Source of the DNA: Mycobacterium phage prophiGD17-1
Strand: one strand, 5' to 3'
Sequence record: MW584165.1
DNA length: 51,224 bases
Shown here: one piece after another, positions 3,500-24,111 of the stretch
Position numbering within the stretch: the stretch's first letter is position 1
Layout of the letters: the number at the start of each line of letters is the position of its first letter
The notes under the pieces: generated by a model
What the model was told of the DNA's origin: nothing
The model's input: only the letters and a program-made list of their open reading frames with translations
Database searches by the model: none
Made by a program: the position numbers and the translations under genes

Positions 3500-3640
3500 G
3501 GGGTTCCCCTCAGTATCAAATGAAAAGCTCAGGAAAGGTTTCAGCTAGCAATCATTGTAGCTACCTGCGCAAATCCATGCTATAGAATTTTTTCTGGTTC
3601 CAGGCTTGTTGTTTCCGGTTCGTTTCTATATCGTGGTCGC
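3500..3640. promoter_or_regulatory. divergent immunity switch region (repressor and cro promoters with candidate operators)
   Basis: AT-rich 140 bp in a 64% GC genome. Imperfect palindrome AGCTAGCAATCATTGTAGCTA (about 3545-3565); direct repeats GGTTCC / GTTTCCGGTTCGTTTC (about 3597-3625); TATATC -10-like element 9 nt before ATG 3641, suggesting a leaderless cro mRNA. Confidence 0.55.
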
Positions 3641-13133: not shown

Positions 13134-13408
13134 CCATGGCACAGCACGAGATGCGCGACCCGTCCGAGAATCGGTGCGTCGCCCGCAAGATAGATGGCGC
13201 CTTCTACCGGGTGTCGTGGAACGGCTCACCCGGCGGTGATGTGATCCTCCCCGAGGGCGCGTTGGGTGTCGTGCGGTCGCCTGTGTCCCACCACAACGAC
13301 CGCGTGGCCACCATCGACCGGCCCGTGGTGCGCGTAACGCCACTGGGGCGCACATGGCGTATCGGCTACAACATCGACGGCCAGTTTCGCGTCGAGGCCA
13401 TCGCATGA
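13130..13408 (+). CDS. hypothetical protein
   Basis: GTGA overlap with rtcB; alternative ATG at 13136. Confidence 0.5.
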   Translation: MTMAQHEMRDPSENRCVARKIDGAFYRVSWNGSPGGDVILPEGALGVVRSPVSHHNDRVATIDRPVVRVTPLGRTWRIGYNIDGQFRVEAIA

Positions 13409-14115
13409 GGCTTTTCAGCACATGCCGCGACTGCGGTGAGGCCATGTTGGTCACCAGCATTGACGACACGGTGCATCCGACATGCGAGCCGAAGCCGACC
13501 GCCGTCGACATTCAGTGCGCCGAGTTCCTGGCCGCTGTGCAGGCCGGTGACGACGCTCGCGCCGACGAGCTGGCCGCGACCATCGATGCCGCCGAACGGC
13601 CCACCTTGCGCGGCTCAGCCCTGTACTACAGCCAGTCCCTCGGCTGGCCGGTGTTCCCACTCAAGGCCGGGAGCAAGGAACCGGCCACGCTCAAGGGATT
13701 CAAGGACGCCACCACGAACCGGCGCCGCATCGAAGCCTGGTGGAACGGCAACCCCAACTACAACATTGGGCTTGCTACCGGCCACGCCTTCGATGTGGTG
13801 GACATCGACCCCGGTCCGGGTGGCCGCGAGTCTCTGGCGCAGCTGGAGCAGGCGGGCAGCCTGCCCGACGTTCACGGCTATGTGGTCACCGCAGGCAACC
13901 GCGCCGAAGGCCGACCAGCTGGCATTCACCTGTACGTCAAAGCCACCGGACGCGGCAACCGTGCTGGCTTCCTACCCGGCATCGATTATCGCGGAACGGG
14001 TGGCTATGTCGTCGGCGCCCCATCCACCCTCGGCAACCACCAGAGCTGGCAATGGCTCATGCGGCCATCACCAGATATCAAGGCACACAACAACACTGAA
14101 AGGAAAGTGGCATGA
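13405..14115 (+). CDS. bifunctional DNA primase/polymerase (PrimPol) N-terminal domain protein
   Basis: ATGA overlap. GWPVFPLKAGSKEP...KDATTN...IEAWW..NPNYNIGLATG..FDVVDID matches the Prim-Pol domain signature. N-terminal Cys cluster. Confidence 0.65.
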   Translation: MRLFSTCRDCGEAMLVTSIDDTVHPTCEPKPTAVDIQCAEFLAAVQAGDDARADELAATIDAAERPTLRGSALYYSQSLGWPVFPLKAGSKEPATLKGFKDATTNRRRIEAWWNGNPNYNIGLATGHAFDVVDIDPGPGGRESLAQLEQAGSLPDVHGYVVTAGNRAEGRPAGIHLYVKATGRGNRAGFLPGIDYRGTGGYVVGAPSTLGNHQSWQWLMRPSPDIKAHNNTERKVA

Positions 14116-14426
14116 GTAGCGCGCAGACGCTCATGGTGCAGACGATGGGGGCACACCGGTCCTACTACAACCACGGCGACGACTGCGACCGGTGCACAGG
14201 CTGCAATTGGAGGGGTCATGCACCCGATGAGCACGAGGCCCACGTTGCCGCTGAGATAGATAAAGCCCTAGGAGGACTCACGCGGAAGCGGCGGATTGAC
14301 CGTCAATGGCGCGAGACGGGCGAGGTGCACCACGACCGATTCTTTGAAGGGAAGCCCGTCCCCAAGACGCGGCTGCACTATGTGCAGCAGTCCCGTTGGG
14401 CGTCTGACTGGACGGTGACCGAATGA
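14112..14426 (+). CDS. hypothetical protein
   Basis: ATGA overlap. Confidence 0.5.
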   Translation: MSSAQTLMVQTMGAHRSYYNHGDDCDRCTGCNWRGHAPDEHEAHVAAEIDKALGGLTRKRRIDRQWRETGEVHHDRFFEGKPVPKTRLHYVQQSRWASDWTVTE

Positions 14427-14456
14427 GCACCTTGACCGGCTGGACGAAGGCAACCA

Positions 14457-14732
14457 ATGTCTAGCCCGCTGGCGTTCGGCGACTGCGGCGGGGTGCTCGA
14501 CTGCGGGCTTGTGCCATCACTCAACGCCGACATCGTTGAGGTTAAGCGCGCCGTATTTGACTACCGCACAGGCATTGTCATGGTCGATGGCCGACGCTTC
14601 CCGTTCATGCTCCACGAAGACGGCCCCACCGTTGAGTTGAACGGTCACGGCTACCCCGTCGTACTCACGGTCCCGGCGGTGTTCCTGATCGATGACCTAC
14701 ACATCATTGGCGCACCGAGACGGGGGCGCTGA
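14457..14732 (+). CDS. hypothetical protein
   Basis: ORF with ATG start. Confidence 0.45.
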   Translation: MSSPLAFGDCGGVLDCGLVPSLNADIVEVKRAVFDYRTGIVMVDGRRFPFMLHEDGPTVELNGHGYPVVLTVPAVFLIDDLHIIGAPRRGR

Positions 14733-14899
14733 TGAGTACCCGAATCGTGTTCCCCGCACCTGAGCCGCCCAAGGGTTCCGTCCAGTGCGGACGTTGCGGG
14801 CGATTCTGTCGCCGTAACCCCACACGCGCTGTCACGTATTGGCCCGACACTTGGGTCGATCACTATCTCTGCCAATCGTGCAAGGAACTGGAGCTATGA
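14732..14899 (+). CDS. small zinc-ribbon protein (55 aa)
   Basis: TGATG overlap upstream and ATGA overlap downstream. CGRCGRFC...CQSC. Under the 60-aa table cutoff. Confidence 0.35.
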   Translation: MSTRIVFPAPEPPKGSVQCGRCGRFCRRNPTRAVTYWPDTWVDHYLCQSCKELEL

Positions 14900-15192
14900 C
14901 CGACCCAGCAGTCGAAGCCGCACAACGGGTCTGGGCGGCAATGTTCCCGCTCGGCCCGTCATGGAACGCTGTGGCCCATGGCGGAAACGAGGACTTCTTC
15001 GTTGCTGCTGCCCGTGAGATGGCTAAGTCGATTCGCAAACTGCACCGGCCGATGACCCCGAGCGAGCTGGCCGACGCCGGGCTATCGCCAGATTGGCGAA
15101 AGTGCGTTGAGTGCTCCAGCGGCTACTACTGGCGAGACTTTCCCTGCGCGACAGCCGAACACATTTACACGACAGAGGAATTGGAGCGATGA
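14896..15192 (+). CDS. hypothetical protein
   Basis: ATGA overlap. Internal start of the table ORF 14839. Confidence 0.5.
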   Translation: MTDPAVEAAQRVWAAMFPLGPSWNAVAHGGNEDFFVAAAREMAKSIRKLHRPMTPSELADAGLSPDWRKCVECSSGYYWRDFPCATAEHIYTTEELER

Positions 15193-16256
15193 CCGCTAAC
15201 CCGGAACAGTCGGTGCTGGACGCTATCGACGCGCTGGTCGATGAGCAGATGGCGGGCGGCGAGTACGCCGCCATCTCGCGCGCCGAGGCGGTAGTTACTG
15301 GCGTGGACCGGTGCGCGCTATGCGGCGTCAACTGGCACGGCTCCCCGTGGACGGGCGTCGACCGCGACCATCTCGGCGAGTACGACCAGCGCAACCACGG
15401 GCGTTCCGTGGGATGCCCTGGCGCGTTCGCGACTGGGCCGCAACGCATTCGGTACCGCTGGCACAAACGGCAACGCTCAGCGATGCGGGAGTGGATGGGG
15501 CGCGGTCAAGATCCGTTGCAGCGGTGCCTGCAGACCCTGCAGAACATCTATGACTTCATCGAATTGCTGACAGGCGAGCAACCGGCGCCCTGGCAGCGCG
15601 AGCAGCTGGCCAGCTGGTTCAACGGCACCGTCCCGAACCTGCCTCCAGAGTTCCAGTTCCCCCGGCCTATTCGGTTCCCGCCGCCCATGGGCCCGCGCGG
15701 CGCCGAGGCCACATTCGAGGCACTGGACGAGGCGTACACGATCGATCCGGCAGACACCTCGGCGCCCTTGCCGAAGCTGTTCATGGTTCCGACCCGTGGC
15801 GGTCAGCAGTCGATCACGCGCCTCCGGCCCGATAGTCGGGCCCTGCTGCGCTACTGGGGATCACCGCAGGTGCTCGGTAGGTGGTGGGAACTAGATCCGG
15901 CTGAAATGCCCTGGGCTGACCTGGAAATCACGCACGAACAGGACCGACCGCCCTTGGGCCGGACAGGCCGGGATAGGTCACTGCCCCCGTTTCAACGCGT
16001 CTTCATTGAGCTGACCACAGTCAGCGGGTTGCACGCCAACCCGATCGGTTTGATTGCGATCGGGCACGGCGACCCCGGCGCCTCCGGCACGGTGCGCCGC
16101 GCCTACCTCAAGTCGATCGGCGATCATCCGCCGCTGCTCTACGGCGGCGACCGTCGCACAAGCGCATGGCAGCCGACATCGTGGGTCTTGCTCGGCGACG
16201 GGCGGATGAACCCTGAGCAGCTGGTGCGCACGATGCGTGAGGTCGAGCACCTGTGA
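15189..16256 (+). CDS. hypothetical protein
   Basis: ATGA overlap; 355 aa. Confidence 0.55.
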   Translation: MTANPEQSVLDAIDALVDEQMAGGEYAAISRAEAVVTGVDRCALCGVNWHGSPWTGVDRDHLGEYDQRNHGRSVGCPGAFATGPQRIRYRWHKRQRSAMREWMGRGQDPLQRCLQTLQNIYDFIELLTGEQPAPWQREQLASWFNGTVPNLPPEFQFPRPIRFPPPMGPRGAEATFEALDEAYTIDPADTSAPLPKLFMVPTRGGQQSITRLRPDSRALLRYWGSPQVLGRWWELDPAEMPWADLEITHEQDRPPLGRTGRDRSLPPFQRVFIELTTVSGLHANPIGLIAIGHGDPGASGTVRRAYLKSIGDHPPLLYGGDRRTSAWQPTSWVLLGDGRMNPEQLVRTMREVEHL

Positions 16257-17926
16257 GCGGCGATGACCTGTTCGAAAACATGGAACGCCTTGGCATTGGT
16301 CTCAAGCCGGAGCGCCGCCCGGTGCCCCGCACGGCGACCACAACCCGCGACACCGCGCCCTACTACCGGGCCGCGCTGGAGAAGGAAATGGTGGAGATGG
16401 CCTCCACTGGGGAGGGCAGGCGCAACGACCAGCTGAACATTTCGGCGTTCAACCTCGGCCAGCTGGTGCCGCACGGGCTTGACGAACTCGAGGTTATCGA
16501 CTCGTTGACGGCGGCGGCGCGATCGACGGCGGGAACGCCGATGACGGACCGCGAGATTGAGCGCACCATCCGCAGCGGCTTGGAGTCCGGTAAGCAGCAG
16601 CCCCGATACGCCGAGAACACCAGCTATGCGATGTCGGCGGCGGCGCCGATCGATGTGCCGCCTCCGACCGAACCACCGCGGATTGACGTACGCGACTACG
16701 AGGGCGACTTTTGGCAGTCCCGCACGTCGCTGAGCACGGTGTATACCGCTGCCCTTGCTGGCATGTGTTCACCGTGGGCGGTGCTGGCCTGCTGTGCGGC
16801 ACGGGCTTTGGCGCTGGTCGATCCACACATCAAGCTGCCCGCCATCATCGGTTCCCGTGGCGGCTCGCTGAACTGGTTCGCGATGCTGGCCGCTGAATCC
16901 GGCGGCGGCAAGTCAACGGCGATGGAAATCGCCGAAGAGCTGATACCGATGGCCATCAAGACGCTGAACTTGGGCAGCGGTGAAGGCCTTATCGAGGCCT
17001 TCGGCGAGCGCAACGACGACGGCACGGTCAAGGACCCGGTGGCGGGTCACCGCTCGATTCTGTTCTCTGTCGATGAGATTGACTCGTATTCGGCGGTGGC
17101 CGGGCGCAGCGGTTCGACGGTGATGCCGATCCTGCGGTCAGCGTTCACGGGTGGCTCGCTGGGCTTCGCGTACCGGAAAGGCAATCGGCTGCCGGTGCTT
17201 CCGGCGCACTCGTATCGGATGACGCTGGTGTGTGCCGCCCAGCCGGGGCGGACGCGCGCCATGTTCGCCGACGCCGATGGCGGGACACCGCAGCGGTTTA
17301 TGTGGTTCCCGGCGACCGATCCACGGATCGCGGCGGTGCGGCCCACATTCAACGGCGCCCTGTATCTGCCTCCGGTGACCGATTGGCAGTATCCGGCCAC
17401 CCTGCGGGTGCCATCGGAGTGCGAGGGCCTGATTGTGACCACGCGGGCCTCCCAGGCGCGCGGTGAGACAGCGGCGCTCAATTCGCATGCCCTGTTCGCC
17501 CGCGAGAAGTTCGCCTACGCCCTGGCCATCCTGGACGGCCGGTCGGCGATGGATTCGGAGGACTGGCGTCTATCCGGGGTCGCGGCGGCGGTGTCCGACG
17601 CGGTGCGTCAATGGGTGCTCGATCAGCTGGCGGCTTCCGAAGCCGAAGAGGCGCGCCAGAAAGGGCGCCTGCAAGGTGTGGCCAAGTCGGCGGCTGACAT
17701 CGAGAAGGCGGTCGAAGACGGGGCCCTGATGGCGCGATCCATCGAAAAGGTGTCGGAGCTTCTACGTAAAGCCGGGGATGACGGACTCACCGGCAGAGAG
17801 GTGCGACGCAAGCTCGCTGCCCGGTTGCAGCCCTTCAGCGAGCAGGCATTGGCGGTGTTGCAGGCGGATGGCAAGGCCCACGCCAATGTCGCTGCCGGAC
17901 GCGCTCAACGGTGGGTGTGGTCATGA
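16253..17926 (+). CDS. P-loop NTPase, primase C-terminal / helicase-like replication protein
   Basis: GTGA overlap. Walker A (AESGGGKST) and Walker B (ILFSVDEID). N-terminal primase-C-terminal-like region. Sits next to PrimPol and the iteron-like region. Confidence 0.6.
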   Translation: MSGDDLFENMERLGIGLKPERRPVPRTATTTRDTAPYYRAALEKEMVEMASTGEGRRNDQLNISAFNLGQLVPHGLDELEVIDSLTAAARSTAGTPMTDREIERTIRSGLESGKQQPRYAENTSYAMSAAAPIDVPPPTEPPRIDVRDYEGDFWQSRTSLSTVYTAALAGMCSPWAVLACCAARALALVDPHIKLPAIIGSRGGSLNWFAMLAAESGGGKSTAMEIAEELIPMAIKTLNLGSGEGLIEAFGERNDDGTVKDPVAGHRSILFSVDEIDSYSAVAGRSGSTVMPILRSAFTGGSLGFAYRKGNRLPVLPAHSYRMTLVCAAQPGRTRAMFADADGGTPQRFMWFPATDPRIAAVRPTFNGALYLPPVTDWQYPATLRVPSECEGLIVTTRASQARGETAALNSHALFAREKFAYALAILDGRSAMDSEDWRLSGVAAAVSDAVRQWVLDQLAASEAEEARQKGRLQGVAKSAADIEKAVEDGALMARSIEKVSELLRKAGDDGLTGREVRRKLAARLQPFSEQALAVLQADGKAHANVAAGRAQRWVWS

Positions 17927-17937
17927 CTCCAGCAAAG

Positions 17938-18000
17938 GGTGTCAGTGGTGTCAGCGCTGACAGTAGGTGTCAGCAACTCGCCACTGACACCGCTGACACC
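17938..18000. repeat. array of GGTGTCAG motifs: three direct copies (17938-45, 17947-54, 17966-73) then two inverted copies CTGACACC (17984-91, 17993-18000); includes the near-palindrome GTGTCAGCGCTGACAG
   Basis: Seen directly. Iteron/operator-like organisation. Confidence 0.7.
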
Positions 18001-18075
18001 AAGGATGCCCTAATAAACGTCTCTACCTGGTCCTATATATAACTATGCATATAAGAGAGATTCGTGTACGTATGC
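18001..18075. promoter_or_regulatory. AT-rich island (CTAATAAACGTCTCTACCTGGTCCTATATATAACTATGCATATAAGAGAGATTCGTGTACGTATG): candidate DNA unwinding element and/or strong promoter
   Basis: Striking drop in GC between the two GGTGTCAG motif clusters, immediately downstream of the replication genes. Confidence 0.5.
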
Positions 18076-18114
18076 GCCACCCCAGGCCAGAGCCTTGGGG
18101 GGTGCGCGCACGAA

Positions 18115-18140
18115 GTGTCAGCGCTGACACCACTGACACC
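18115..18140. repeat. perfect 16-bp palindrome GTGTCAGCGCTGACAC (18115-18130) plus an adjacent CTGACACC (18133-18140)
   Basis: Seen directly. The same 8-mer recurs at 18669-18676 just before ATG 18678. Confidence 0.7.
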
Positions 18141-18189
18141 TCAGCTACGCCGGAAAAGCCAGTTAACAATCACAACCGAAGGGATTGAG

Positions 18190-18681
18190 ATGACCACCAC
18201 GAAGTCCAAGCCAAAGCCCAAGTGCAAGGACTGCCTTGCCGAGGGCGTCACAACACTGCGGCCTGCCCCGTGGCCCGGTCCCCGCTGCGAAACGCACCGC
18301 AGGGCCCGGCAGAAGGCCGTCCGGCGCAAGAACCATGGCCGGATGGTCGAGAACACCTACGGCATCACGGAGACCGAATACGAGGCGATTCTGGCCGTGC
18401 AGGGCGGTGCCTGCGCCATCTGCGGACGGGCCAAGGGCATCACGAAGCGGCTAGCCGTCGACCATGACCACAAGCTCGGGAACACACGCGAAGCAGTGCG
18501 CGGCCTGCTGTGCACGACATGCAACCACGTCGTCATTGGCCGATACGGACCCGAAGCACTGCGAAGGGCCATCGACTACCTGGCAGATCCTCCGGCGCGG
18601 CGAGTTCTCGCCACCGCACCAGCTGCCCATGTGGCTCGCACCGAGGACAAGGCCCCGGCAGCCGCCGAGGTGTCAGCATGA
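18190..18681 (+). CDS. endonuclease VII (T4 gp49-like Holliday-junction resolvase)
   Basis: CAICGRAKGITKRLAVDHDHKLGNTREAVRGLLCTTCNHVVIG matches the Endonuclease_7 signature (C..C...L.VDHDH.TG.VRGLLC..CN). ATG 18190 after GAAGGGATTGAG. Confidence 0.75.
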   Translation: MTTTKSKPKPKCKDCLAEGVTTLRPAPWPGPRCETHRRARQKAVRRKNHGRMVENTYGITETEYEAILAVQGGACAICGRAKGITKRLAVDHDHKLGNTREAVRGLLCTTCNHVVIGRYGPEALRRAIDYLADPPARRVLATAPAAHVARTEDKAPAAAEVSA

Positions 18682-19181
18682 CCGCGATCACGTGGGACAG
18701 CGGCGCCGGATTCCTTAAGGGCACCGTCGAAGGTCAATGGCGGTACGCCAACGCTGGTGGTTTCGTCTGGTACAGGGAGGATGATCAAAGCGGTTGGTGC
18801 CCAATAGGGCTGGGGCATCCCAATGGCCAGGCATACGCCGAGGCCCACTGGGCAGGCCTACAGGACCGAAGGGTGGCCGATGCGATCAACACCATTCGCG
18901 ACGCCTCGGCGCTACTCGCCGCATCATCAGGCCCCATACGGCTCGAATCTGACGAAGCGGCCAGGCTGTACGCCGCGATCGACGCCCTACCGCCGTCGCC
19001 CGTCGCCCCGCCACCCACGCGTCGCACGCTGTGGATCAACGGCGTCGTCCTGACCGGTGAAGTTCGATCGATCAGCACCCACACCCACGGCGACGGAACG
19101 CAATCCATCGAGTTCAGCTTCAGGCCGGACAGCGCTGATGACACCGTGCGGGTCATCGAGTCCATGCGAGTTGACCAGTGA
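18678..19181 (+). CDS. hypothetical protein
   Basis: ATGA overlap. A GGTGTCAG motif lies within 10 nt upstream of the ATG. Confidence 0.55.
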   Translation: MTAITWDSGAGFLKGTVEGQWRYANAGGFVWYREDDQSGWCPIGLGHPNGQAYAEAHWAGLQDRRVADAINTIRDASALLAASSGPIRLESDEAARLYAAIDALPPSPVAPPPTRRTLWINGVVLTGEVRSISTHTHGDGTQSIEFSFRPDSADDTVRVIESMRVDQ

Positions 19182-19411: not shown

Positions 19412-19821
19412 AGGTCTACATCGTCACCACAGGCAGCTATTCGGACTACCAGATTCAACGGGTGCTCACTGACAAGGAACGGGCCGAAAAGCTTGCCGCC
19501 GCATGGAATAACACCGCCTACTACGGCGGTGATGCCCAGGTCACGGAGTGGGAGACAGACGAGCAGACGGACACCCTGGCCCGCCAGTGGGTGCAGAGTG
19601 AAGTCCTTCTCTACGGCTACGAGTGGACACCCGTTGGCGCCTTTGAGCAGGTCTACGACATCGACGGCTGGACATACGAAGGCGCCCACCCCGGCAAGGC
19701 CACCGTGGTCGAAGCCACCGACCGATTCGTCAAGGTGATCGGAACCGACGAAATGGCCGTCCGGAAAAACATCTACGACACCGTGACACAGATCCGAGCA
19801 CGAGCCGAAGGGATTGCATGA
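19408..19821 (+). CDS. hypothetical protein
   Basis: GTGA overlap. Internal start of the table ORF 19057. Confidence 0.5.
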   Translation: MKVYIVTTGSYSDYQIQRVLTDKERAEKLAAAWNNTAYYGGDAQVTEWETDEQTDTLARQWVQSEVLLYGYEWTPVGAFEQVYDIDGWTYEGAHPGKATVVEATDRFVKVIGTDEMAVRKNIYDTVTQIRARAEGIA

Positions 19822-19822
19822 C

Positions 19823-20500
19823 ATGACCACCATCGCGAAGGGCACCCACATCAACCTGTGCGCGCACCCGGATTGCAAGCGCGACAACGGCAAGCCAGCA
19901 CACACGCCGGATGGCATGTGCCGCAGCTGCCAGCGCCGCGTCGCCACCGCACTGGAGCGCGTTGTGCTCGATTGGGTTCAGCTGCACCAGCTCCCCGCAC
20001 CCAACAAGGGCGACAAGATGCGCGGCGCCAAGGTTAAGGACTACGGCCACCCAGCCGAATGGGCCTCGGACATGCTCACGAAGATCGCCATATGCCTACG
20101 GGCAGCACATGACAACCTCGCAAGCACGCTGGCCGAGCAAGGGCACGAGGCCCCTGGCGAGGATTACCCCAGTGAGCGCGCCGCCGTCATCGCCGCACAC
20201 ACCTACCTGTCGGTGCGCATCGACAAGCTGTGCCGCCAAGACTGGGCGCCGGACATCATCGCCGAATGGCTTGGCCTGCACTCGAAAGTACGCAGCCAGC
20301 TCGGCCTGACGCGGCCACGTATCGCCCTGCCAACACCGTGCCCAGACTGCGACATGCGGACCCTGACGCGCTACATCGACGTGCAGCGTGACTGGATTGA
20401 GTGCGGCAACTGCCAGACGCAGATCCGCAGCGAGCACTATCCGCTGTGGACATCGATCGTGCTCGAAGAGCTTGTGACCGAGGCGCAGGGTCAGTCCTGA
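19823..20500 (+). CDS. hypothetical Cys-rich protein
   Basis: AAGGG RBS. Several CxxC pairs (CAHPDC, CRSC, CPDC, CGNC). Confidence 0.55.
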   Translation: MTTIAKGTHINLCAHPDCKRDNGKPAHTPDGMCRSCQRRVATALERVVLDWVQLHQLPAPNKGDKMRGAKVKDYGHPAEWASDMLTKIAICLRAAHDNLASTLAEQGHEAPGEDYPSERAAVIAAHTYLSVRIDKLCRQDWAPDIIAEWLGLHSKVRSQLGLTRPRIALPTPCPDCDMRTLTRYIDVQRDWIECGNCQTQIRSEHYPLWTSIVLEELVTEAQGQS

Positions 20501-20627
20501 CACGCCCGCAAGCGCGAGATGCGGAATGTCCTGTGTTACATGTACTATGGGTGCGACTGACAGAGCTATACCCAAACACCGGACCCATTCGCCCGTGCGG
20601 AGGGGTTTTCGCATTTCAGGGGAGTTC

Positions 20628-20864
20628 ATGACTGCGGTACTCGCGCCAGATGGCGCCGAATCCCTCGTCACCGCCGAAGAAGCGGCCACCATCTGCGGTG
20701 TCCGATCCGTCACTGTGCGCCAATGGGCTTCGCGCGGCTACGGCCCCGCCAAGTGCAAGACCAGGCTGCCACAGTGCGGCATAAACGATCGCGGCCGCAA
20801 GCTCTACCGGCTGCTCGATGTCGCCAAGGCTGAGCACGCAACAAGGGCACTCGCCCGCAGATGA
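20628..20864 (+). CDS. excisionase-family HTH DNA-binding protein (second Xis-like gene)
   Basis: GGGGAG RBS. TAEEAATICGVRSVTVRQWASRG is an HTH_17/Xis-like helix-turn-helix. Preceded by a 128-bp intergenic region with the palindrome GTCAGTCCTGAC at 20488-20499. Confidence 0.55.
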   Translation: MTAVLAPDGAESLVTAEEAATICGVRSVTVRQWASRGYGPAKCKTRLPQCGINDRGRKLYRLLDVAKAEHATRALARR

Positions 20865-22263: not shown

Positions 22264-24111
22264 ATGTCGGTGATGCTGGCCGCTCGCGAGGGTGACCAGA
22301 CCGACCTGCTGGAGTCGATGCGCGACCGCCTTTCGCCGGTTGTGCTTGACCCGGAGACCAATACCCGCGAGCTGGCGTCGCTGTCGCAGCGGCTGCTGGA
22401 GATTCTGCGCGACCTTGACGACGGCCCCGAGTCCCGCAAGGAACGCCGCGAGCTTCTGGGCAAGATGCGTGTCCGGGTGGCGAGTGCCGTCGACCGTGCT
22501 GACACCCCGATTCGCGACTTGGCGGCGCTGTCGCGGCGTCTGCTGGATATCGCCGAAGACATCGCCATCTTGGATCAGCTGTCGGGTGAAACAGACCCGA
22601 TCGCGCACGCGGTGAAGGTACCTGACGATACGAACGTCGAAGCCCCGGCACTGTATGCCAAGGCCCGCTATGTGGTGCCGCCAGAGAACATGGTCACTAC
22701 CGAGTGGCCATCGATCTGCGAGATATGCCGCGTGCTGGGCATCGAATTCGATGACTGGCAAGACGACTTAGGTCGCCTGATCTTGGCGAAGCGGCCGGAC
22801 GGCCTGTACGCCTCGGACACGACGGCCATCTCGATACCGCGCCAGTCAGGCAAGACCTACCTGATCGGCGCAATTGTGTTCGCGCTGTGCATCAAATACC
22901 CCGGCCTGCGGTGTATCTGGACCGCGCACCTGTTCAAGACGGCGCGCGAGACTTTCGAGTCGATGCAGGGCCTGGCCGACATGCCGAGCGTAAAGCCGTA
23001 CATCAAGCGGATTTACAGCGGCTCGGGTGACGAAAAGATCCTGTTCACCAATGGCTCGGTGATCATGTTCGGCGCCCGCGAGCGCGGCTTTGGTCGCGGC
23101 TTCCCGAACATCGGCGTGCTGATTTTCGATGAGGCGCAGATCCTTACGTCGAAGGCGCTCGATGACATGACGCCATCTACGAACGTTGCGAAGAACCCGC
23201 TCATTTTGACGATGGGCACACCGCCCAAGCCGGAGGACCCGAGCGAGTTTTTCACCACTCAGCGTCTCGACGCTGGTATCGAGGCCGACGACGAAGACTA
23301 TGCCGGGCTCGATGACGATGACGACGATGTGCCGCGTGAGTCGCTGTACGTCGAGTTCTCGGCGGACCGTGGATGCGACCCGAGTGACAAGACTCAGTGG
23401 CGCAAGGCCATTCCAGCGTTCCCGAACCGCGTCAGTGAGCGTGCGGTACGCCGCATGCGCAAAATCCTGGGCGAGGCCTCATTCCTTCGGGAAGGTCTCG
23501 GCATCTGGGACAAGATCGTCAGGACCAAGCGCATCATTTCAAAGCGCCTGTGGGCCTCGGCGATCGACATTGGCCCAGACAGCGATGCGACGCCCTCGGC
23601 GATCGGTGTCGACATGTCACATGGGCGCGAGCTGTCCATTTCGGCAGCGTGGGTGCTCGAAGGCGGGCGCGTCCACGTCGAAGAGGTCTGGAGCGGCTTC
23701 GACATTTCGGCCGGCAAAAACTGGTTGGTCGAGACATCGAAACGCATTGACATCCTGATCGATTCAGCTTCGCCCGCGTCGGCGCTACTGCCCGATCTGC
23801 TGGCCAGGCGGTGCCGGGCTCGCCAAACCACAGCGCAGGACATGGCCAAAGCCTGCGGCGCCTGGATGGATGCGATCGACTCCGAACTTTTGGACGACGG
23901 CCTACCACTGCTGACCCATAGCGGTCAGGAAGCACTCACCAAGGCAGTCGCCGGGGCCCAGAAGCGGCCCATCCGCGACGCAGGCGGCTTCGGCTGGGAC
24001 CGGTCGGATGACGCCGTGAACATTGCGCCTCTGGTGTCGGGAAGCCTTGCGCTACTTGGCGCAACCACTAACGGACCTCGGAAACGGACCACCAGAAAGG
24101 CGGTGTACTAG
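22264..24111 (+). CDS. terminase large subunit
   Basis: Walker A (IPRQSGKTY) and Walker B (VLIFDEAQ). 615 aa with a C-terminal nuclease-like region. GAGGGA RBS. Confidence 0.9.
   Translation: MSVMLAAREGDQTDLLESMRDRLSPVVLDPETNTRELASLSQRLLEILRDLDDGPESRKERRELLGKMRVRVASAVDRADTPIRDLAALSRRLLDIAEDIAILDQLSGETDPIAHAVKVPDDTNVEAPALYAKARYVVPPENMVTTEWPSICEICRVLGIEFDDWQDDLGRLILAKRPDGLYASDTTAISIPRQSGKTYLIGAIVFALCIKYPGLRCIWTAHLFKTARETFESMQGLADMPSVKPYIKRIYSGSGDEKILFTNGSVIMFGARERGFGRGFPNIGVLIFDEAQILTSKALDDMTPSTNVAKNPLILTMGTPPKPEDPSEFFTTQRLDAGIEADDEDYAGLDDDDDDVPRESLYVEFSADRGCDPSDKTQWRKAIPAFPNRVSERAVRRMRKILGEASFLREGLGIWDKIVRTKRIISKRLWASAIDIGPDSDATPSAIGVDMSHGRELSISAAWVLEGGRVHVEEVWSGFDISAGKNWLVETSKRIDILIDSASPASALLPDLLARRCRARQTTAQDMAKACGAWMDAIDSELLDDGLPLLTHSGQEALTKAVAGAQKRPIRDAGGFGWDRSDDAVNIAPLVSGSLALLGATTNGPRKRTTRKAVY

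Follow-up and report, generated by a model that had tools for sequence, protein, structure and literature searches.

A candidate iteron-type replication origin downstream of the DUF3987 helicase gene in the Mycobacterium abscessus prophage prophiGD17-1

The 51,224-bp stretch of DNA analysed here, referred to as the window, is the Mycobacterium abscessus prophage prophiGD17-1, which is listed in cluster MabD (MW584165; Table 1, Dedrick et al. 2021; PMC8092301) and has prophiGD05-1 and prophiGD12-2 as close relatives. Between the gene for a putative initiator-helicase and an endonuclease VII gene it carries a compact array of short repeats in both orientations, split into two arms by an AT-rich core. 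The array is a candidate replication origin, and its organization, its conservation and the proteins that could act on it are described below.

The repeat array and its AT-rich core

Coordinates are those of the whole window, and all genes near the array are on the + strand. The elements of the locus are as follows:

16253-17926, +: putative initiator-helicase gene, encoding 557 residues
17929-17936, +: CCAGCAAA box, directly after the helicase stop codon; the only occurrence in the window
17938-18000: left iteron arm, with GGTGTCAG (+) at 17938, 17947 and 17966, and CTGACACC (-) at 17984 and 17993
17957-17964: degenerate inverted copy CTGACAGT, within the left arm
18009-18068: AT-rich core
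18114-18140: right iteron arm, with AGTGTCAG (+, one mismatch) at 18114-18121, and CTGACACC (-) at 18124 and 18133
18115-18130: perfect 16-bp palindrome GTGTCAGCGCTGACAC, part of the right arm
18190-18681, +: endonuclease VII (Holliday-junction resolvase) gene (Pfam Endonuclease_7, E 6e-24), the first gene past the array

The array starts at 17938, 12 nt past the helicase stop codon (which ends at 17926), and finishes 50 nt before the endonuclease VII start. An earlier note on this DNA, made from its letters alone, had drawn attention to clustered motifs beside an AT-rich island, and every motif position that it gave is correct. The degenerate copies CTGACAGT and AGTGTCAG were missed or under-described in it.

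Three properties characterize the array. First, the repeat is sharply clustered. A count over the whole window, which the earlier note had suggested as a check, finds nine exact copies of GGTGTCAG on either strand; shuffles that preserve dinucleotides have 2.38 +/- 1.59, and none in 100 reaches nine. Seven of the nine lie inside 17938-18140, against an expectation of about 0.01 for 211 bp (Poisson P about 1e-18). The two exact copies beyond the cluster, at 18669 (+) and 22499 (-), match chance expectation, and no second iteron cluster was found in the window. Second, the copies are regularly arranged: neighbours are spaced by 9 bp, there are six copies on the left (one of them degenerate) and three on the right, and the outermost copies are mirror images. 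The right arm mirrors the left as an inverted repeat of 32 nt (17938-17969 and 18109-18140, 91% complementary). Third, the DNA between the arms is AT-rich. The 60 bp at 18009-18068 are 35% GC, compared with 63.3% for the window, which is the joint-lowest GC content of any 60 bp within it; the 75-bp island that the earlier note had described (18001-18075) is 39% GC. The sequence of the core (CCTAATAAACG..TATATATA..ATGCATAT) is kept among MabD-type loci, and we propose 18009-18068 as a candidate DNA-unwinding element.

Two further AT-rich islands are present in the window. That at 39-98 (35% GC) lies at the left prophage end, adjoining the integrase gene, and is probably att-related DNA; that at 3534-3593 (37% GC) sits where the immunity repressor and the early genes diverge, and is probably promoter/operator DNA.

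Repeats and helicase C-terminus in related loci

The only Pfam match of the 557-residue protein encoded just upstream of the array is DUF3987 (30.4 bits against a cutoff of 27), and most of its homologues carry precomputed PF13148 matches. No primase domain was detected in it with Pfam, and a phmmer search with the helicase against PDB chains, at E-values up to 1, returned two 'putative zinc protease' entries and no helicase. An AlphaFold2 model built with 71 homologues (mean predicted local distance difference test score 88) divides the protein into the following parts:

Residues ~35-114: N-terminal helical (PriCT-like) domain
Residues ~190-430: MCM-like DUF3987 P-loop ATPase; Walker A lysine K220
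Residues 435-510: long connecting helix
Residues ~496-557: C-terminal winged helix, with the order helix-strand-helix-helix-strand-strand in the model
Residues ~487-557 (codons 17711-17923, +): variable C-terminal segment, including the winged helix; proposed determinant of iteron specificity

A faint PriCT_1 match is recorded on one homologue only (P0041), and the window protein has no PriCT match in Pfam.

The relatives compared are prophiGD05-1, prophiGD12-2, ten further IMG/VR contigs, and distant homologues drawn from a protein search and a phage collection. The same layout, with repeats, an AT core and further repeats placed right after the helicase gene in a gap of 210-290 bp, is present in 23 of the 24 related loci examined, the exception being phage Corndog. 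A 40-mer of 22-30% GC lies between the two arms in every homologous locus with an array, and the arm pattern '> < <' recurs in eight of 13 mapped loci. The repeat words themselves fall into 11 sequence classes, and each motif occurs almost nowhere else in its locus:

GGTGTCAG (T1): window, L003, L005, L009, L011, L015, L017
GGTGGAGG (T2): L001, L004, L006, L007, L008, L012; also the word of prophiGD05-1
GTGTCGGC (T3): L002 (prophiGD12-2), L010
GTGTCGGGC: L013
AGGTGTGGC: L014
GGTGGACA: L016 (M. chelonae)
ATGTTGGAC: L018
ATGTGGAC: L019
GTAGGAC: DS6A (helicase gp85)
CGTGGACA: Gordonia phage Tarzan (helicase gp54)
CCAGCAAAC: Gordonia phage BetterKatz (helicase gp70)

In prophiGD05-1 and prophiGD12-2 the intergenic region retains the layout and AT core of the window with the 8-mers changed, and the spacing of the right arm, motif-CG-(reverse complement)-A-(reverse complement), is the same in the window and prophiGD05-1. 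Searches of genome contigs, either with the helicase alignment or with the 26-nt right arm, found no relatives. In IMG/VR the 26-mer is confined to four already known T1 contigs, and there are thus no 'orphan' origins on other elements. Coding sequences annotated as 'hypothetical protein' overlie the iteron/AT-core region at 6930-7181 of L002 (prophiGD12-2 gene 33) and at 3027-3299 of L022 (Tarzan gp55); since neither the window nor the other types conserve an equivalent open reading frame, these calls are probably spurious.

Several other genes of the window enter into the comparison:

226-1617: integrase gene, at the far left end
13354-14115, +: AEP-type PrimPol gene (Pfam Prim-Pol, E 2.9e-33)
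19814-20500: Cys-rich protein gene
20526-20864: helix-turn-helix (HTH) gene, Xis-like
22264-24111: terminase gene, 4 kb from the array

The repeats change together with the C-terminus of the helicase. Residues ~20-485 of the protein are nearly 100% identical in the three MabD prophages and the last ~70 residues diverge; the ten further IMG/VR contigs show the same three types, with a perfect correspondence between C-terminal type and repeat. A 100-bp identity scan extending 4 kb to either side identifies 17701-18200 as the sole segment whose variants follow repeat type. The PrimPol region, the Cys-rich gene and the HTH gene are mosaic in ways unrelated to it, so that, of the candidate binding proteins put forward in the earlier note, the NTPase encoded from 16253 tracks the repeats and the Cys-rich and Xis-like proteins do not.

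Two comparisons set protein-specific recognition apart from mere linkage. The first is a double dissociation. L001 and L002 have helicase cores 98% and 99% identical to that of the window, with winged helices only 68% and 35% identical, and their iterons differ from the window's; L015, with a helicase that is 72% identical overall (core 83%, winged helix 76%), carries GGTGTCAG as in the window, and its residues 512-523 (LTGREVRRKLAA), in the N-terminal part of the winged helix, are identical to those of the window. The second is a natural hybrid C-terminus, P0033, with residues 496-505 resembling T2 and 512-557 resembling T1; the prediction was that its repeat would be GGTGTCAG, and this is the word found on its contig, L017. 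T1 and T2 winged helices differ at 20 of 62 residues, yet are paired with GGTGTCAG and GGTGGAGG respectively; residues 512-527 are candidates for contact with the bases. When T1 is compared with T2, synonymous divergence (dS) is 1.02 for the winged-helix codons and 0.09 for the core, which argues that winged helix and origin travel together as an old cassette exchanged by recombination. In-situ positive selection, considered as a source of the winged-helix divergence, was rejected in favour of cassette exchange on these values and on a ratio of nonsynonymous to synonymous divergence (dN/dS) of about 0.25. Each of the 11 repeat classes pairs with its own winged-helix variant, and together with the double dissociation and the hybrid this supports cognate Rep-origin specificity at the computational level.

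Repeats that follow a winged helix could instead be operators for a transcription factor, either the helicase itself, autoregulating through its winged helix, or some other phage regulator, that control a promoter in the AT core for endonuclease VII and the genes beyond, with no origin function. Palindromic sites are typical of dimeric HTH and winged-helix regulators, and TATA-like hexamers occur in the AT core, which has a conserved sequence across the MabD loci and lies about 130 bp upstream of the next gene. However, a consensus scan of 17700-18400 found no sigma-70-type promoter, and the sole co-varying protein segment belongs to a replicative-type helicase; neither the nearby HTH proteins nor the immunity repressor co-vary with the repeats, and the window (GGTGTCAG) and prophiGD05-1 (GGTGGAGG) have immunity repressors that agree at 98% of residues and throughout the HTH region. 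Nor do the sites resemble the stoperators of cluster A phages, the other possibility raised in the earlier note: stoperators are many dispersed sites bound by the immunity repressor, and the sites here are clustered. We consider operators without origin function unlikely, although a regulatory role alongside origin function is possible.

The inverted repeats might also act through nucleic-acid structure alone, as a terminator or RNA hairpin after the helicase gene, or as a cruciform for the adjacent Holliday-junction resolvase. The 32-nt inverted repeat gives a single strand of the array a predicted fold of -62.6 kcal/mol (z = -8.65 against shuffles), the origin of plasmid pRN1 is a stem-loop downstream of its rep gene orf904 (PMC4234260), and a resolvase is the next gene in many loci. 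It is the first gene past the origin in six of them (the window, L015, L016, L018, L019 and L023, which is BetterKatz), and the type varies, with endonuclease VII in some loci and the unrelated RusA in others; adjacency in two unrelated families suggests that there is a functional reason for it, and the endonuclease VII gene of the window is context, outside the origin proper. Against a purely structural role, 17700-18400 has no terminator-like site with a T-run, Rfam and tRNA scans of the whole window gave no match, and a hairpin has no need of direct repeats at 9-bp spacing. Furthermore, all copies, direct and inverted, become one new 8-mer between types, with no pairwise compensatory changes, which fits recognition by a protein. 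Structure alone is therefore a very improbable explanation.

Lower still is the probability that the array is a packaging site (pac/cos), a partition site (parS-like) or a site for site-specific recombination. Such sites are also clusters of short repeats, sometimes by AT-rich DNA; but the terminase gene is 4 kb distant, no ParA or ParB is annotated in the related prophage regions examined, and the integrase gene is at the far left end, at 226-1617. No protein of these kinds adjoins the repeats or co-varies with them, whereas the helicase C-terminus does both.

The same comparisons set the limits of the feature. The earlier note had the array bracketing the endonuclease VII gene, with related sites as far as 18700 and 20499; this is not confirmed. 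Three features were considered as accessory sites and rejected: the GGTGTCAG copies at 18669 and 22499, the second of which is within the terminase gene, and a palindrome at 20488-20499. All three persist, unchanged or nearly so, in phages with other iterons, and are thus coincidental coding sequence, which confines the feature to about 17929-18141.

Other short words at the locus are conserved. Irrespective of iteron type, 11 of 12 non-redundant loci have an AGCAAA core within 11 nt of the helicase stop codon or overlapping it (sometimes at a TAG stop); the loci with this (CC)AGCAAA box are the window, L001, L002, L013, L014, L015, L016, L018, L019, L020 (DS6A) and L023. The box may be a second, invariant origin element. 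In BetterKatz the iteron itself is CCAGCAAAC. Within the core and beyond it, CCTAATAAA at 18009-18017 and CCAGG at 18082-18086 have counterparts in L001, L015, L016 and L023. The window shares CCTAAT(AA), where the AT core begins on the left, with the M. chelonae prophage and BetterKatz, the helicases of which are only 52% and about 33% identical to its own. CCAGG is placed between AT core and right arm in MabD-type loci. Both are conserved words in a region that otherwise changes fast. The CCAGCAAA box and a CCTAATAA element are conserved elements and candidates for a second recognition element.

The proposed origin and comparable systems

We propose that 17929-18141 is the lytic replication origin of the MabD-cluster prophage prophiGD17-1, with a probability of roughly 0.8. 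The suggestion of the earlier note, that iterons and an unwinding element next to replication genes would form a phage origin, gains comparative support in that the layout is kept and the repeat changes with the winged helix. The locus is best read, from its sequence and that of its relatives, as an iteron origin of the pri-rep-ori type of Staphylococcus aureus pathogenicity islands (SaPIs) or of the P4 type, a kind of system already familiar from SaPI, P4 and lambdoid O/ori.

In SaPIs the rep open reading frame is directly followed by the origin, in which 6-12 short iterons flank a central AT-rich region, two or more of them on either side and pointing in opposite directions. SaPI Rep is a helicase that loads itself and owes its island-specific recognition of iterons to a C-terminal winged helix; a primase gene accompanies it (PMC9371898). 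The prophage matches this anatomy in the position of the origin right after the helicase open reading frame, in the iterons on both sides of an AT core, and in a hexameric-type helicase ATPase with a C-terminal winged helix. It differs in that its helicase has no detectable sequence homology to SaPI Reps, being a DUF3987/MCM-like protein with a PriCT-like N-terminal domain that is accompanied by an AEP PrimPol; in its iterons of 8-9 bp rather than 5-6 bp; and in that the host is an actinobacterium and the element a full temperate phage, not a satellite.

The origin of phage P4 has octamer iterons (TGTTCACC) in both orientations; its alpha protein includes a superfamily 3 (SF3) helicase, and P4 requires a second cis region, crr, several kb away. 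In work attributed to Ziegelin and Lanka and to Yeo et al. 2002, and cited in PMC4234260, alpha is reported to be a single protein that recognizes the origin by means of a C-terminal winged helix and is also a helicase. The prophage resembles P4 in the proposed origin-recognizing winged helix at the C-terminus of a helicase and in having octamer iterons in both orientations, and differs from it in the lack of a crr-like second iteron cluster in the window and in having its primase as a separate AEP Prim-Pol gene. In the lambdoid phages the specificity domain of the initiator O and the iterons of ori co-vary as an exchangeable unit among otherwise similar phages. There, however, the origin is inside the O gene, the iterons are ~19 bp, and O is not a helicase but recruits host DnaB through P. 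Iteron plasmid origins (RepA/pi/TrfA) have tandem direct repeats of 17-22 bp and a Rep_3-type initiator with two winged-helix domains, unlike the direct and inverted 8-9 bp repeats of the prophage; none of 15 window proteins scanned, including those encoded on both sides of the array, has a Rep-family Pfam match.

Alpha of P4 carries a fused Toprim-type primase (PMC4234260), which the prophage helicase does not. The pRN1 origin is a stem-loop of ~100 nt without iterons, and ORF904 of this archaeal plasmid fuses prim-pol, SF3 helicase and winged helix; the C-terminal winged helices of AEP-helicase proteins have been proposed to recognize origins (PMC5862659). A protein with a similar three-part plan is AgaPH, a PriCT-DUF3987 protein that has been shown experimentally to be a helicase and to bind the adjacent PrimPol, AgaPP, in vitro, and whose DUF3987 is classed as superfamily 6 (PMC11724360). 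The two share a DUF3987 ATPase, a small domain at the C-terminus and a PrimPol encoded separately within the module, and the helical N-terminal domain of the prophage protein may correspond to the PriCT domain of AgaPH, but no origin or iterons are described for the element of AgaPH, and the words 'iteron' and 'winged' do not occur in that report (PMC11724360).

On the strength of the SaPI-like anatomy and the likeness to P4 alpha and to the pRN1 orf904 origin, we propose the following mechanism. The C-terminal winged helix of the MCM-like DUF3987 helicase would recognize the 8-bp iterons GGTGTCAG, and because these form two mirror-image sets flanking a ~60-bp AT core, helicase oligomers would assemble on each set and be oppositely oriented. 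The AT core would then melt and the helicases would load themselves onto the opened DNA. The separately encoded PrimPol would be recruited through the PriCT-like N-terminal domain of the helicase and would prime synthesis. It is the likely priming partner, and in L015, L016 and L019 the helicase gene comes right after a Prim-Pol gene. Winged helix and iterons would together form a single exchangeable specificity cassette, moved by recombination between otherwise near-identical phages. The PrimPol and helicase genes of the window are separated by a mosaic insert of ~2 kb (~14100-16250), which holds a 381-residue open reading frame without a Pfam match (15111-16256) and is kept, lost or replaced in relatives irrespective of iteron type.

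Several observations weigh against this proposal or limit it. First, the helicase homologue of Corndog (cluster O), gp22, has no such array directly downstream, so that the arrangement is not universal in the family; the Corndog origin may be elsewhere. Second, the array adjoins the winged-helix codons, and co-inheritance alone would give an association within each type; for this reason the argument for specificity depends on how many independent classes there are, and on the double dissociation. Third, the AT core is conserved among the MabD loci in sequence, beyond composition, and could thus be a promoter or the site of a second factor. Fourth, the cumulative GC skew has no extreme at the array, although this is uninformative. 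Finally, MCM helicases have 3'->5' polarity. AgaPH, the one PriCT-DUF3987 helicase that has been characterized, unwinds in the opposite direction, 5'->3' (PMC11724360), so that neither MCM nor SaPI can simply serve as a model for how loading proceeds in detail.

Corndog gp22 (L021, 757-3117) is 44% identical to the window's helicase over the ATPase region and is fused to a longer N-terminus; just two copies of CACGACGTGC are found downstream of it.

Possible specificity cassettes and their uses

The terms origin of replication, primase and iteron are absent from the report in which the prophage is listed (PMC8092301), and in the searchable literature we found no iteron origin of this kind described for a mycobacteriophage or a DUF3987 helicase. 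A broader suggestion can be offered tentatively, and with a good deal more doubt than the assignment of the origin itself. Winged helix and iterons might be a portable replicon specificity cassette, shuffled by recombination among actinobacteriophages and defining replication-compatibility groups, such that co-resident or superinfecting relatives could not fire each other's origins. The origin might moreover be in two parts, with variable iterons and an invariant (CC)AGCAAA box that is read by invariant machinery, for example as a PrimPol start site or a helicase-loading mark.

The locus provides a candidate origin, ~210 bp long and open to test, for a phage family to which M. abscessus MabD prophages, DS6A of M. 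tuberculosis and several Gordonia phages belong. Such origins are overlain by 'hypothetical protein' genes in at least two published annotations, which would be corrected. The natural series of matched winged-helix/iteron pairs is a system in which DNA recognition by winged helices can be dissected, the helicase-origin cassette could seed new mycobacterial vectors, and the origin would be worth protecting in therapeutic phages that are engineered or synthesized.

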